From the NCBI GenBank assembly GCA_027081275.1, contig JALWKV010000046.1, positions 2,315 through 66,314 on the forward strand: 64,000 nt of DNA, written 5' to 3'. The notes under the pieces are model-generated. The model saw only the letters and a list, made by a program, of their open reading frames with translations. It did no database searches and was not told the origin of the DNA. Below are positions 7,120 through 27,767 of this stretch, in pieces. Within the stretch, counting starts at the first letter, position 1; every line of letters starts with the position of its first letter. This DNA comes from Gammaproteobacteria bacterium. Lineage in GTDB: Bacteria; Pseudomonadota; Gammaproteobacteria; UWMA-0217. Both the position numbers and the translations under genes were made by a program.

Positions 7120-8275
7120 ATGGACAGACTTCAGACAGCAATCGCTCCGTTTCTCGACACGATCTCCGCCGAGCCGTGGCTGCAGACGCTGGTCGTCGTG
7201 GTCGTGACCCTGCTGCTGGCGCGGCTGGCCACGGTGCTCGTGCTTGGCGCGCTACGCTTTCTCGTCGGTCGCACCCGCTCCCGGCTCGATGACGAAATCC
7301 TCGGCGCGCTGGAGACACCGCTGGTCTACACGCTGGTCATGGTCGGACTGCTTGCGGCCGTGGCGATCATGCCGGTGGAGGCGCGGCTCCAGCATATTCT
7401 CAGCGGGTTGCTGCGCAGTATCGGCATCATCGTCTGGGCGCGTTTCCTTATCCGTCTGACCAAGCTGCTGATGACCCGCGCCGCCCGCCGCGCCGGAGAA
7501 AATCAACTGCTGCAAAGCGCCACGCTGCCGCTGTTCGAAAACCTCGCCTTCGTCATCATCGTCGCGCTGGCCGTCTATCTAATCTTCGACACCTGGGGCA
7601 TCGACATGACCGCCTGGCTGGCCTCCGCCGGCATCATCGGTATCGCCGTCGGCTTCGCCGCCAAGGACACGCTGGCCAACCTTTTCTCCGGGGTATTCAT
7701 TTTGATCAAGCGGGTATAACGTGAAAACAAGTGGTTGAGATGCTGGATATCCACTGTTGATTTGTTATGTTCGTTTGATCTTGACGGATATGCCATACAA
7801 GATCGGCGACTACGTCGTGCTCGACTCCGGCGAACGCGGCTGCGTCACCCAAATCGGCATCCGCAGCACCCGCCTGCTGACCCGCGACGACGTGGAGCTG
7901 ACCATCCCCAACTCCATCATGGGCAACTCCAAGATCATCAACCAGTCCGGCGGACCCTACAAGAAATTCCGCATCCGCGTCCCCGTCGGCGCCGCCTACG
8001 GCTCCGACATCGACCAGGTCAAGGCAGTGCTGCTGGCAATCGGCAGGGAAAACGACATGACCTGCGACGAACCCGAACCACGCGTGCGCTTCCGCGCCCT
8101 CGGCGCCTCCAGCCTCGACTTCGAACTGCTCTGCTGGGTGGACGACCCGGCGCTGCGCGGACGCGCCGTCGATGCGCTGCTAAGCACGATCTACAAGCGG
8201 TTCAATGAGGAGGGAATCGAGATTCCTTATAGCAAGCAGGATGTTTATATCAAGGAGATACCGGGGCGGAAATAG
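7120..8275 (+). pseudogene. MscS-family mechanosensitive channel split into two frames (7120..7719 and 7757..8275) by a 79-bp insertion; pseudogene or sequencing artefact
   Basis: ORF1 ends ...NLFSGVFILIKR and ORF2 resumes PYKIGDYVVLDSGERG..., which together reconstitute the conserved MscS pore-helix/beta-domain junction (E. coli LLVMFRPFRAGEYV). The frames differ by +1. Confidence 0.7.
7714..7792. other. 79-bp AT-rich (~38% GC) insertion interrupting the MscS gene
   Basis: Length not divisible by 3; GC far below the local ~65%. Imperfect direct repeat tttgatcaagcgg / tttgatcttgacgg at upstream flank and 3' end of insert. Confidence 0.6.
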
Positions 8276-8530
8276 TTGTTTGCCGGGTGGGCTTTGCCTG
8301 ATCTGGCCTACACGATGCGCCGTCAGGCAATGACTGCGATAGCAGGCGAGCCGTACCAATTTACCCTTCGTCCCGCCCGAGCATCGCAGGCCCGGGCGGA
8401 TCAGGCCCGCAGGGGCAGGCCAGGGATGGCCTGCGTTGGCCGCGCGGATGGACGCGTCGGCCAACCCCCGGTCGGGCCGAGAAGCACAGGAAACAGCAGG
8501 ATGAGCGGGCGGCATTTTTTCGCTCCAGTG

Positions 8531-8656
8531 GCCGCTCAGCACGGTTGGATTTTGTTTCAGATCAAGGCATTTTCGCGCACAGCGAGGGCGCATACACGCA
8601 GTATGCAACCGAGCGAGCACGAAAATAACGCAGAGATGGAACAAAAGACGACCGTG
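8531..8656 (-). repeat. Repeat family A (MITE-like, ~135 bp), copy 1
   Basis: Reverse-complement match (~95% identity) to 26483..26621 and 33746..33877. Internal ~25-bp imperfect terminal inverted repeats (ttttgttccatatctgcgttattttc / gaaaatgccttgatctgaaacaaaa). Confidence 0.8.
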
Positions 8657-8698
8657 ATGGGCGGTCACTGTCCCTATTTGTTGCCGTTTACAAAAAGG

Positions 8699-8735
8699 GA
8701 CTCGGCCCCTCGGGAGGGGGCCGAAACCAGCAGGA
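8699..8735 (-). terminator. Rho-independent terminator on the minus strand, downstream of sbcD and the tandem repeat array
   Basis: GC-rich hairpin cggccccctcccgaggggccg followed by ttttt when read on the minus strand. Confidence 0.5.
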
Positions 8736-8789
8736 CGCCTGCCAGGCCCGTGACACGGGCAGAGCGGTAATAAGTGAACAACCGTCCCC

Positions 8790-9350
8790 CCGTCATTCCG
8801 GGCTTAGCGCAACGGAGACCCGGAATCCAGGCCGAGGTACTGGATTCCCGCTTTCGCGGGAATGACGGTGAATCGGTTCGCCGGGCGTGGGAATATGCTG
8901 ACAGGGAGCAGATACCAGCCACTCTGGGCCATCACGCCATTCCGGGCGGAGTGAAACGGAGACCCGGAATCCACGCCGAGGTATTGGATTCCCGCTTTCG
9001 CGGGAATGACGGTGGGTGAATTCTACGGGCGTGGGAATGCGCTAACAGGGAGCAGATACCAGCCACTCTGCGCCATCACGTCATTCCGGGCGGAGTGAAA
9101 CGAAGACCCGGAATCCATGCCGAGGCACTGGATTCCCGCTTTCGCGGGAATGACGGTGGATCGGTTCGCCGTGCGTGTGAATACGATGATAGCGAGCGGA
9201 TACCAGCCCCGCTGCTCCGTCATTCCGGGCGGAGTGAAACAAAGATCCGGAATCCACGCCGAGGTATTGGATTCCCGCTTTCGCGGGAATGACGGAATGG
9301 GGATTCGACTGGCTTGGGAATGCACTGATAGGGGCGGATTCCCTACTCCT
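8790..9350. repeat. Tandem array of four ~140-bp units (147/143/139/132 bp). Each has a ~78-bp conserved core with nested inverted repeats and a more diverged ~60-bp remainder
   Basis: Core gtcattccgggcggagtgaaacggagacccggaatccacgccgaggtattggattcccgctttcgcgggaatgacgg occurs 4 times. It contains attccggg-N16-cccggaat and ATTCCCgctttcgcGGGAAT, the same form as neisserial dRS3 (ATTCCC-N8-GGGAAT). Abuts the sbcD stop codon. Confidence 0.85.
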
Positions 9351-10584
9351 CCCGACGATCCCCCTCTTCCACCTCCCTCACCACCTCCCGATAGGCATCG
9401 ATGAGAACATCCCGCTGTTCGGCCGGGATGTCATGGCTGTCGAGGCAACGGAGAAAAACGTCGTGGACATCGAGGTCGTCCAGCGTTTCATCCTCGCGCA
9501 TTTTTCCCAGCGCTGTTTCGACGACGCGGTTGTTGCGTATGCGCAGGATCTCCAGTTTCGACTCCGACACCAGTTCTTCCAGCCGCTGGCGCAAGTCGCC
9601 GATGATTTCGTCGCCGTCGTAGCGTATCTCCAGCCAGGCGGCGGCCTGTTCCTCGACCAGCGCGCGGATCGCCGTCTCCAGCGTCGGCCAGTCTCCGCTC
9701 AGGTATTGCAGTCGCTGGAACGTCGGCACATCGAGCAGTTCGACTGTCGGTTGCCGTTCGTCGAACGCGACGAGGCAGAGCGATTTTTTCTGCCCCGCTT
9801 CGCCGAACCCCATTGGCAGCGGCGAGCCGGCGTAGCGGATGTGTTCGGCGCCCCCGACTTTCTGCGGCACGTGGAGATGCCCCAACGCCACGTAGTCGAA
9901 GCAGTCCGGAAATACGGCGCCGCTGACGTGGGCCAGCGAGCCGACGTAGAGTTCGCGCACGCCATCGCCCTCGACGGTTTCGCCGCCGGCGGCGAACAGA
10001 TGCCCCATGCCGATGATCGGTATCTCTTGCCCCAGTCGCTCTTGCAACGCCTGGGCGGCCGCGCCGACGGCGGCGTAGTGGTCGCGGATGCCCTCCACCA
10101 GCTTGCGGGCCTTGTCCTCGGTGCTCTCCCCCGCCTCGGCGCTGCGGATGTCGCGATCGCGCAGATAGGGAACGGCGGCGACGATCGCCATCGGCTCCCC
10201 CGCGTCATTTTCCAGCAGCAGCACCTCCTCCGCCGGATCGGCGGCAGCGGCGCCGATCACGTGCACCGACAGCGCGCGCAACAGCGCCCTGGGCGCATCG
10301 AGGAAGGAGGGCGAGTCGTGATTGCCGCCGATGACGACGACGTGGGCGCAACGGGAGCGGGAGACGCGCTCGAGAAAACGGTAGTAGAGCGCCTGCGCCC
10401 GGTTGCTCGGCGCGGTGGTGTCGAAGACGTCGCCCGCCACCAACAGCACGTCGATGCGCTGGCGCTCGATGGTGTCGGCCAACCAGTCGAGAAAGGCAGA
10501 GAATTCCTCGTAGCGCTTGCGGCCATAGAGGCTGCGGCCGAGGTGCCAGTCGGAGGTGTGGAGAATCTTCAGGGGCGCCGCCAT
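9343..10584 (-). CDS. sbcD: Nuclease SbcCD subunit D (Mre11-like metallophosphoesterase)
   Basis: N-terminal calcineurin-like motifs (ILHTSDWHLG, LLVAGDVFD, GNHDS, GHLH), 413 aa. No sbcC ORF on either side. Confidence 0.85.
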   Translation of the reverse strand: MAAPLKILHTSDWHLGRSLYGRKRYEEFSAFLDWLADTIERQRIDVLLVAGDVFDTTAPSNRAQALYYRFLERVSRSRCAHVVVIGGNHDSPSFLDAPRALLRALSVHVIGAAAADPAEEVLLLENDAGEPMAIVAAVPYLRDRDIRSAEAGESTEDKARKLVEGIRDHYAAVGAAAQALQERLGQEIPIIGMGHLFAAGGETVEGDGVRELYVGSLAHVSGAVFPDCFDYVALGHLHVPQKVGGAEHIRYAGSPLPMGFGEAGQKKSLCLVAFDERQPTVELLDVPTFQRLQYLSGDWPTLETAIRALVEEQAAAWLEIRYDGDEIIGDLRQRLEELVSESKLEILRIRNNRVVETALGKMREDETLDDLDVHDVFLRCLDSHDIPAEQRDVLIDAYREVVREVEEGDRREE

Positions 10585-19692: not shown

Positions 19693-19798
19693 TTTCCAAC
19701 GCTCCTGAGCGGGGCGCGGCGTCTTCTGTACTTCTCTTCCAGGTAATAAACGATTCCGGTCATATCGGCATTCCCCCTTGCCTGCATCCTGTGCTGTG

Positions 19799-19931
19799 AG
19801 TGACTGCTCAGCTCACCCCTGAAATCCGCCATTTCTGCGTTCGAAAATGGTCATTTACATTTGTAAACTCACATTTTCTGCCTTGAACTGTCGGATTTCA
19901 GAGGCAATCCGAGCAGTCACTGGCCAGACTT
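19799..19931. repeat. Repeat family C, full copy with ~30-bp imperfect terminal inverted repeats
   Basis: agtgactgctcagctcacccctgaaatccg ... cggatttcagaggcaatccgagcagtcact. Related fragments at 23483..23559 and 50801..50866. Confidence 0.65.
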
Positions 19932-27362: not shown

Positions 27363-27517
27363 GGAACCTCTGAACAATTCGTCCCTGAATTGTCAGAGGA
27401 CGAAAAACGAAAAGTGCGATTTGCGTTTTTCTTACAGAATCAATCGCTTGGCGCGCTCGATTCTGGCGGCACGTCCGTGTGCTGCAGGAAAGTCTGATTT
27501 GATCAGACTTTCCTTAA
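27363..27517 (+). repeat. Repeat family B, copy 2
   Basis: Five hairpins including cagaatcaatcgc...gattctg and aggaaagtctgat-ttg-atcagactttcct. Confidence 0.8.
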
Positions 27518-27767
27518 CACTGTTTGGCTGCAAATCCGTGGATAGCGATCAACTGGACTGATCAGGCTCGTTAAATAGCCCTGCTATTCGCCTCACCCGA
27601 TCAGCCCATTTGATTCGCTCCCACGAATTTTCGCTTCAAACGGTTAAGTCGGACAGCCTCCTGGCGCGGAGCATGGTGACCGGCGGGACGAGCGCGGCTG
27701 CGACAGGTGAATTGATTACGCAAATGTAATAGAGTTGCGCTGCTCTTTGTCCCCAACCGGTCACCCC

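Follow-up and report, generated by a model that had tools for sequence, protein, structure and literature searches.

A tandem array of nested palindromes lies between an mscS-type channel gene and sbcD in a 64,000-nucleotide stretch of DNA from an uncultured gammaproteobacterium (contig JALWKV010000046.1; hereafter the window, by which we mean the whole stretch analysed), and it runs right up to the stop codon of sbcD. An earlier note, made from the sequence alone, found this placement notable in view of the hairpin-cleaving activity of the SbcCD nuclease, and the question that the locus raises is whether an array of DNA hairpins beside sbcD has anything to do with that nuclease or belongs to some wider system of repeats. 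We report a computational analysis of the array, its distribution and its neighbours. In our judgement the array is probably an intergenic mosaic, resembling the neisserial intergenic mosaic elements (NIME), composed of hairpin repeats of the Neisseria Transformation Sequence (NTS) and Ssn-related motif (SRM) type, a family recognised as single-stranded DNA (ssDNA) by the small GIY-YIG nucleases named Ssn. Taken by itself it adds one more ordinary case to a family of repeats for which the recognition enzyme became known in 2025, and the proposed connection with SbcCD does not hold.

Architecture of the array and identity of its core

Tandem Repeats Finder detects one long-period array, and only one, across the 64 kb. 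It lies at 8791-9333, with a period of 144, 3.8 copies, 84% matches and a score of 728, and its repeat copies start at 8791, 8935, 9079 and 9218, a spacing of 144/144/139. Extended to its natural limits, the array (8791-9342) consists of four 78-bp two-hairpin modules and spacers of 66, 66, 61 and a truncated 47 bp. The earlier description of four head-to-tail units of about 140 bp, with a near-identical 78-bp core and related but diverged spacers of about 60 bp, is thereby made exact: modules are 92% identical between units and spacers, 61-66 bp long in full, are 68% identical. The 25-mer GGATTCCCGCTTTCGCGGGAATGAC occurs exactly four times (8842, 8986, 9130 and 9269), with no other occurrence in the window at up to three mismatches and no match in 100 shuffles; the pattern ATTCCC-N8-GGGAAT is found four times, always inside the array, against an expectation of 0.14, and CATTCCGGG-N16-CCCGGAATCC four times on the + strand against 0.04.

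The core proves to be a known sequence. The 28-nt NTS, CGTCATTCCCGCGMAVGCGGGAATCYRG, contains dRS3 and, according to the main text of the report that describes it (Chenal et al., Nat Commun 2025, PMC11893778), is bound by SsnA, a small GIY-YIG nuclease that cuts 5' of the NTS in ssDNA and in the sense strand only. The same text describes NTS-like SRM and ssnA homologs as widespread in bacteria and the 5' GTC and the C after the palindrome as critical for both cutting and binding; it accepts as NTS any sequence with at most one mismatch to CGTCATTCCCGCGMAVGCGGGAATCYRG, and as SRM the degenerate pattern HGTCWY-N0-2-YYVSBRH-N0-5-WNVSBRG-N0-2-RNCYNB, in which the loop spans 0-5 nt. In the window, CGTCATTCCCGCGAAAGCGGGAATCCAG or a one-mismatch variant of it is present on the - strand, which is the sbcD strand, of every unit. 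The match to the NTS consensus is exact in units 1 and 3 and falls short by a single mismatch, a final G changed to A, in units 2 and 4, within the search criterion given in the main text of PMC11893778; none of the four copies departs from the 5' GTC or from the C that follows the palindrome. The resemblance to dRS3 and NIME repeats on which the earlier note remarked is thus closer than it had claimed, the published NTS being matched exactly in two of the four units and with one mismatch in the other two.

A second hairpin, CGTCATTCC-GGGC-N16-CCCGGAATCCA, occupies the + strand of each module. It has the same CGTCATTCC and GGAATCCA flanks as the NTS and a longer stem-loop, and is SRM-like without being an SRM by the published pattern: as a regular expression, that pattern matches the - strand NTS copies only and leaves out the + strand hairpin with its 16-nt loop. 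Each module is a convergent pair of oriented hairpins, one per strand, with the 5' CGTCA ends facing outward, and the 3' tails of the two hairpins (GGAATCCA/TGGATTCC) pair with each other. In module 1 (8791-8868) the long-loop, NTS-like hairpin lies at 8791-8831 on the + strand and the canonical NTS, matching the consensus exactly, at 8840-8867 on the - strand. Module 2 (8935-9012) carries the long-loop hairpin at 8935-8975, with CGCC instead of CGTC as its 5' flank, and at 8984-9011 an NTS with one mismatch (...AATCCAAT). Module 3 (9079-9156) again has an exactly matching canonical NTS (9128-9155, - strand) beside its + strand hairpin (9079-9119), and in module 4 (9218-9295) one stem position of the + strand hairpin (9218-9258) is mutated, to GATCCGG, and the - strand NTS (9267-9294) has one mismatch. 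In sequence, structure and orientation the array agrees with what has been described for NTS.

Each core is predicted to fold as a cloverleaf, in which an outer stem, GTCATTCC/GGAATGAC, encloses three hairpins, and this holds for either strand and either energy model. The nested-palindrome architecture that had been proposed is borne out computationally, by RNA and DNA fold predictions: among the RNA folds unit 2 has z scores of just -1.5 to -1.7 and the other three units have -3.1 to -4.3, and DNA folds of modules have z scores of -3.2 and -3.7. As ssDNA the NTS hairpin alone is predicted to form an 8-bp stem with a GAAA loop, at -9 kcal/mol and a z score of -4.2. The longest arms inside one unit measure 8-11 nt and lie 59 nt apart; the remaining inverted pairs are short hairpins. 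ARAGORN finds no tRNA or tmRNA in the window, so the cloverleaf is not a tRNA-like gene, and Rfam gives no family at its gathering score across the whole window and nothing at E<=1 over 8200-9400.

Several other identities were considered and set aside. Read as intrinsic terminators, the hairpins provide only one weak site of five pairs inside the array (9124->9107), the strong site being outside. A CRISPR array is rejected on the grounds that the repeat is 78 bp long and that its "spacers" are 68% identical to each other and recur at other loci; no cas gene is present among the window open reading frames (ORFs) scanned with Pfam. An integron attC reading was also considered and rejected. The short ORFs over the array (8674-8922 on the - strand, 8774-9019 on the + strand and 9023-9325 on the - strand) have no Pfam match and are treated as spurious.

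The array is genuine and no artefact of the source assembly. Two independent metagenome assemblies (L235 and L239; samples ERZ27262687 and SRR4453772), with DNA 97-98% identical to the window, have the same units directly after the sbcD stop codon, so that units are seen at this site in three independent assemblies; both of these contigs end inside the array, and the count of four units is that of the source assembly. The array grew by copying of its 144-bp unit, as is directly evident from the homology among the spacers.

Distribution of the repeats and their relation to sbcD

We scanned a collection of species-representative genomes together with viral-contig, plasmid and metagenome collections, and take the hairpin, the module and the loop variant of the window in turn. 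The 25-nt NTS hairpin alone is present in at least 120 contigs of the viral collection, within unrelated flanks, and also in replicons of Neisseria, Azospirillum, Photobacterium and Novosphingobium. The two-hairpin module is found at at least 112 loci of species-representative genomes from many phyla. Among the matches listed, it is carried by Thalassospira, by Smithella and other Deltaproteobacteria, and by Rhodocyclales, Hydrogenophilus, Lysobacterales and Binatia, among others; the Alpha-, Beta-, Gamma- and Deltaproteobacteria are all represented. About 45 of the contigs come from a single metagenome-assembled genome (MAG) from a hydrothermal vent, Gammaproteobacteria HyVt-560. This MAG is also the nearest relative of the window that was seen, with a dnaE region 74% identical; the window itself has about 65% GC, which the earlier note had called not Neisseria-like. 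One of its arrays aligns with that of the window over 377 bp, spacers included; another consists of three modules starting about 14 nt after the stop codon of a different gene, and a further tandem array has five modules with 19-bp spacers.

The loop variant of the window is found in 38 contigs, all of one metagenome. Together these contain 82 modules, many of which belong to arrays with as many as six copies and periods of about 97-144 bp. The window spacers recur in 15-19 of these 38 contigs, and the 144-bp unit is therefore itself a dispersed tandem family; the spacers have no matches outside the window lineage. At the genome and metagenome loci L122-L277 we counted 114 clusters of modules, and in 26 of these the arrangement is tandem. 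Gene orientation was also recorded at 64 module clusters (++ 22, -- 21, convergent 12, divergent 9); these figures come from a crude ORF picker, are too rough and were not used.

The loop of the long hairpin is non-random across phyla. Among the 85 modules listed from loci L122-L233 it takes recurrent forms: one type, of 16 nt, is G-AGCG-AGCG-AGAC, another, of 14 nt, is GAGCGAAGCGCGAC, and there are longer loops with an inner stem of their own (for example GTGGCGCGAAGCGCCAC and GGCCGCAGGCC). The recurrence suggests that the loop, or the hairpin nested within it, may be under selection.

Presence and absence were also seen in Azospirillum plasmids. In strain Az39 a 74-bp NTS-bearing element (L278, 1460-1535), with the NTS hairpin at its end, occupies an intergenic site at which it is precisely absent in strains MTCC4035 and MTCC4038 (L279, L280), and runs of GGGGG flank the gap at both ends. 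Another element at this site, unrelated and about 170 bp long, likewise varies between the strains.

How, then, does the array relate to sbcD? The gene itself (9343-10584, - strand; 413 aa, with the Pfam domains Metallophos and SbcD_C) is intact and adjoins the repeat system without belonging to it. The array does begin at its stop codon, as had been noted, since the TAG directly adjoins the last, truncated spacer (9296-9342; 47 of about 66 bp). On the other side of the array lies the mscS-type channel gene (7120-8275, + strand), so that the array is situated between convergent genes; with one oriented hairpin per strand in every unit, it is not exclusively on the sbcD strand, contrary to the earlier note. 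No sbcC is present in the window, in which the 1164-aa ORF proved to be dnaE and the remaining large ORFs cellulose-synthase genes.

A search with SbcD returned seven relatives at 91-100% identity. Two of them, L234 and L238, are independent assemblies, 99.6% identical to each other and 96% identical in DNA to the window (97% in SbcD), and neither has an array. Their similarity to the window ends 2 nt after the sbcD stop codon, at the array edge and inside the truncated spacer, and at this point they continue with a short-chain dehydrogenase gene truncated at its 5' end. Because the truncated dehydrogenase gene starts 2 nt past the sbcD stop, the arrangement indicates a deletion or rearrangement, one end of which lies exactly at the edge of the repeat array. 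More distant relatives, with SbcD 71% identical, have no NTS downstream of sbcD, and one of them keeps the order fumarase, glutathione S-transferase, sbcD. In the window lineage sbcD is found without sbcC (L234, L236, L237, L238), and in L237 a tRNA gene follows it.

Conversely, sbcD is absent from all of the hairpin- or module-bearing loci L001-L233, and in the loci examined the module adjoins unrelated genes. The earlier note had named a ubiquitous core without positional bias as evidence that would refute it, and in relatives the core is of this kind, standing at no fewer than the 112 loci counted above with unrelated neighbours. SbcCD acts in vivo on long palindromes and not on stems of 8-9 bp, the size of those in repetitive extragenic palindromic (REP) sequences. 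As a substrate for SbcCD the array was rejected, its stems being 8-9 bp long and no long near-perfect inverted repeat being present. Because close strains lack the array, the relatives at 71% lack a downstream NTS, loci L001-L233 lack sbcD and the stems are short, the position of the array next to sbcD looks incidental, an association confined to some strains of one lineage.

Origin of the module and competing explanations

A clue to the origin of the module is found in the loci at which NTS flank a gene. Three genes of about 100 aa encoding GIY-YIG proteins (Pfam PF01541) are present in unrelated loci of the viral collection, each flanked in the order NTS(+), gene, NTS(-) with the GTCA ends outward. 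The leads were obtained by phmmer; the three matches were confirmed by Pfam, and a hidden Markov model (HMM) built from these three sequences found no further copy. Viral contigs L044 and L054 have small ORFs of 79-89 aa, other than ssnA, between convergent NTS pairs. The NTS-ssnA-NTS arrangement is likened to an insertion sequence in the main text of Chenal et al. (2025, PMC11893778), and the geometry of the 78-bp module is that of this cassette without the gene. Because the geometry is the same with the gene removed, the module most likely began as a non-autonomous miniature of the NTS-ssnA-NTS cassette, and would spread as one.

The further steps of such a history can be sketched. The four-unit array probably arose by tandem duplication or unequal recombination of the 144-bp unit of module plus spacer. 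A cognate Ssn, if the genome encodes one, would bind either strand in its single-stranded state and nick it 5' of the hairpin, occasions for which would be transformation, conjugation, replication and repair. Nicking of this kind might turn the array into a hot spot of recombination and rearrangement, a suggestion that draws on Chenal et al. (2025) and on the polymorphism between strains and that would fit the breakpoint at the array edge. The repeats would have landed by accident between two convergent genes, and whatever they may do to the sbcD mRNA would be secondary, as with REP sequences and the bacterial interspersed mosaic elements (BIME) that they compose. Hints of this origin and of mobility are the near-identity of the module across phyla, the polymorphism of the array in close strains and the presence and absence of the 74-bp Azospirillum element.

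Several points weigh against this account. Two regular expressions, phmmer and the three-sequence HMM detect no Ssn-like gene in the 64-kb window or in the module-bearing loci L122-L277, and a cognate nuclease in the source organism would have to be assumed; nor do the loci examined contain an autonomous module, in which the long-loop hairpin and the NTS would be separated by a gene. The long-loop hairpin falls outside the SRM pattern and is at most a putative target of Ssn. For the 78-bp module we found no clean pair of empty and filled sites and no consistent target-site duplication around the 85 modules listed, and the sbcD junction, inside a truncated spacer, points to illegitimate recombination or deletion rather than to site-specific insertion. 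Finally, only one module-bearing locus lies inside the 64-kb window, and the 38 metagenome contigs are assigned to its lineage solely by shared repeat variants.

With these points in mind, we consider it possible, though on balance unlikely, that Ssn, supplied in trans, moves the 78-bp module as a genuine non-autonomous mobile element, nicking each strand 5' of its hairpin at the two outer CGTCA ends. Were it so, Ssn would be a new kind of ssDNA-hairpin-guided transposase or homing enzyme, and the occurrence of a near-identical module from Alphaproteobacteria to Binatia, as well as NIME-like arrays outside Neisseria, would be explained.

The array is not the only repeat at this locus: in the gap that separates mscS from sbcD, about 1 kb long, no fewer than three families of dispersed repeats form a mosaic, with one nested inside another. 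A dispersed repeat of about 317 bp in all, which we call element B, lies next to the array on the + strand. Its left part (8327-8522) is separated by an insertion from its right part (8671-8790), which runs straight into module 1, and its other copies are likewise always joined on the right to a module. There are 22-27 copies, 82-94% identical, in 15 metagenome contigs (among them L242, L246, L252, L255, L265-L267, L269, L270 and L273); element B is absent from HyVt-560 and is specific to the window lineage. Copies elsewhere are uninterrupted, and the window copy is split by the insertion, which at 148 bp (8523-8670) and with imperfect 19-nt terminal inverted repeats (CAGTGGCCGCTCAGCACGG / CAGTGACCGCCCATCACGG) resembles a miniature inverted-repeat transposable element (MITE).

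A second element at about 19797-19923 has the same termini of about 14 nt as this insertion and has an internal motif in common with it. Over 65 bp this second element matches part of metagenome contig L257 at 94% identity. Elsewhere in the window, at 27490-27560, a short sequence beside a perfect hairpin (ggaaagtctgatttgatcagactttcc) is 92% identical over 37 bp to an unrelated place (L234, 4062-4098) and may be another small dispersed repeat. The mscS gene is itself split by a 73-bp AT-rich insertion (7708-7780), with a 7-bp direct repeat, TTTGATC, at 7701 and 7774; its removal restores an uninterrupted 360-aa ORF with all three MscS Pfam domains. The insertion has the look of a very small MITE, or of a footprint left by a transposon, and would inactivate the gene.

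Within the right part of element B, downstream of the array on the sbcD strand, is a terminator-like GC hairpin with a T-run (8701-8725, - strand). The earlier note had placed the only plausible terminator at about 8700-8735; this agrees with our finding that the site 8725->8701, beyond the array, is the sole good terminator-like site on that strand, to which we add that it belongs to a dispersed element. It is conserved in the copies of element B, with one compensatory change; in the predicted fold of the element as a whole, only four pairs show such changes. On the + strand element B is predicted to fold into a multibranch domain of about 140 nt with a closing helix, followed by CATTTTTT, with GGA in several loops, and further on into a 13-bp A/T hairpin and then the GC hairpin that is the terminator when read on the - strand. 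A match to PrrB/RsmZ in one copy only (Rfam E 0.15, 20 bits against a cut-off of 44) is treated as chance.

These observations bear on the explanation that survives best after our own, which holds that the array is mainly a structured 3' untranslated region (UTR) of sbcD, co-transcribed with the gene, whose predicted hairpins would stabilise or regulate the mRNA as REP and BIME do in E. coli. Read-through of the array as an sbcD 3' UTR is plausible from the sequence, for the array starts directly after the stop codon, the sole good - strand terminator-like site lies beyond it and the predicted RNA folds are stable. Hairpins of this kind also appear in RNA studies: a Northern-blot probe for the Francisella sRNA FtrB contains the NTS-like hairpin GTCATTCCCGCGTAGGCGGGAATC, and small-RNA reads of Thalassospira xianhensis, called "miRNAs", map to ATTCCCGCGTGCGCGGGAATGA (PMC3091763, PMC6413936), so that such hairpins are transcribed in some bacteria. 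The module is, however, dispersed beside unrelated genes, and it follows other genes in the opposite orientation, with the long-loop hairpin first in L150 and the NTS first at sbcD. Moreover, strains 96% identical, with SbcD of the same length, are without the array; there is no Rfam match; and the terminator belongs to a separate dispersed repeat. An effect on mRNA would in any case leave the repeat family unexplained, and as the main function of the array we regard this as improbable.

We hold it to be very unlikely that the array belongs instead to a classical REP/BIME family, unrelated to Ssn, that is spread by a REP-associated tyrosine transposase (RAYT) of the IS200/IS605 type. A REP is an imperfect palindrome of 20-40 nt headed by a conserved GTAG, and a RAYT gene is flanked by REPs. 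The logic is the same, with short extragenic palindromes in inverted pairs that cluster between convergent genes, and the analogy is drawn in the main text of PMC11893778. The sequence here, however, is the NTS consensus with the head CGTC and not a GTAG-headed REP, and the only family-assigned gene between hairpin pairs in the loci examined encodes a GIY-YIG protein, the other ORFs being small and without an assigned family.

An assembly artefact, or a plain minisatellite duplicated locally and palindromic by chance, is a shade less credible again. Short-read assemblies of close strains do break inside the array, and the spacers show growth by duplication; but three independent assemblies contain the units, and these differ by 8-32%, so that collapse or expansion during assembly is unlikely. 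Local duplication is moreover insufficient as an explanation because the core is conserved nearly base for base across phyla.

Least credible of all is a tie to SbcCD, in which the array would serve the adjacent nuclease as a built-in hairpin substrate, decoy or regulator: for it speak the adjacency to sbcD and the palindromic units, and nothing more, and against it the loci without sbcD, the relatives and close strains without NTS or array, the missing sbcC and the stems of 8-9 bp, REP-sized hairpins being stable in sbcCD+ cells.

The NTS-type mosaic is the preferred reading, and its value, which is modest, lies in a few points. NIME-like arrays are present also in an uncultured high-GC gammaproteobacterium, for which one closely related contig comes from a hydrothermal-vent metagenome. 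The canonical NTS here makes up, together with a long-loop partner hairpin, a fixed 78-bp module whose sequence is the same almost base for base in several phyla, and this module offers a concrete substrate for the suggestion, made in the main text of PMC11893778, that NTS-ssnA-NTS acts like an insertion sequence. Short-read assemblies moreover break at such arrays, and the arrays mark the places where close strains are rearranged relative to each other, so that they are relevant to the reconstruction of MAGs.

Comparison with known systems

Four known systems invite comparison with the array. REP and BIME of Enterobacteria, Pseudomonas and Stenotrophomonas resemble it in being short extragenic palindromes of alternating orientation, clustered and often situated between convergent genes; their spread is attributed to a domesticated nuclease whose substrate is the hairpin in ssDNA, and mRNA upstream of them can be stabilised. 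The array differs in having no GTAG head and in the class of the associated enzyme, GIY-YIG as opposed to HUH/Y1, and it does not belong with them.

MITEs, of which the neisserial Correia elements are an example, resemble the module in that it is small (78 bp), gene-less and bounded by inverted repeats (cGTCATTCC / GGAATGACg), and in that it is high-copy, dispersed and present or absent between strains. The terminal repeats, GTCATTCC/GGAATGAC, are indeed there; unlike those of MITEs, they are hairpin halves shared with the inner hairpins, and neither a target-site duplication nor a clean empty site was seen. The array is absent in close strains, but the sequence downstream differs, and a clean presence and absence, of 74 bp, was found only for the single-NTS element of the Azospirillum plasmids. 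We know of no transposase for the 78-bp module.

NIME are intergenic arrays with nested repeats in which the 20-bp dRS3 (ATTCCC-N8-GGGAAT) alternates with repeat sequence (RS) elements of about 50-150 bp; according to Bentley et al. (2007, PMC1797815), they had not been observed outside Neisseria. The array differs from them in the sequence between its dRS3 copies, which has no similarity to Neisseria: blastn to Neisseria gonorrhoeae covers the hairpin only, 27% of the query, the matches being to complete 2.17-Mb replicons filed as plasmid records in the plasmid collection. Neither the neisserial RS families nor a Neisseria host is found here, and all four "RS" units belong to one family, so that the array is regular and not a mosaic of many RS families. 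In form the array is like them: the four dRS3 copies are intergenic and recur every 144 bp, the intervening 124 bp being related sequence; other repeats are nested in the array; and close strains have different arrays, at which rearrangements have their breakpoints. Neither PMC1797815 nor the main text of PMC11893778 describes element B, the fixed two-hairpin module or the tandem arrays that this module forms.

It is the NTS and SRM system, as set out in the main text of PMC11893778, that comes nearest. The array is unlike it in the 16-nt loop of the partner hairpin, in that no ssnA gene was found in the window, and in its host, an uncultured gammaproteobacterium of about 65% GC. The NTS copies of the array are nonetheless extragenic, hairpin-forming and oriented, present in multiple copies in related genomes and spread across phyla, as NTS and SRM are, and they stand in convergent pairs with their GTCA ends outward, just as do the NTS around ssnA genes.

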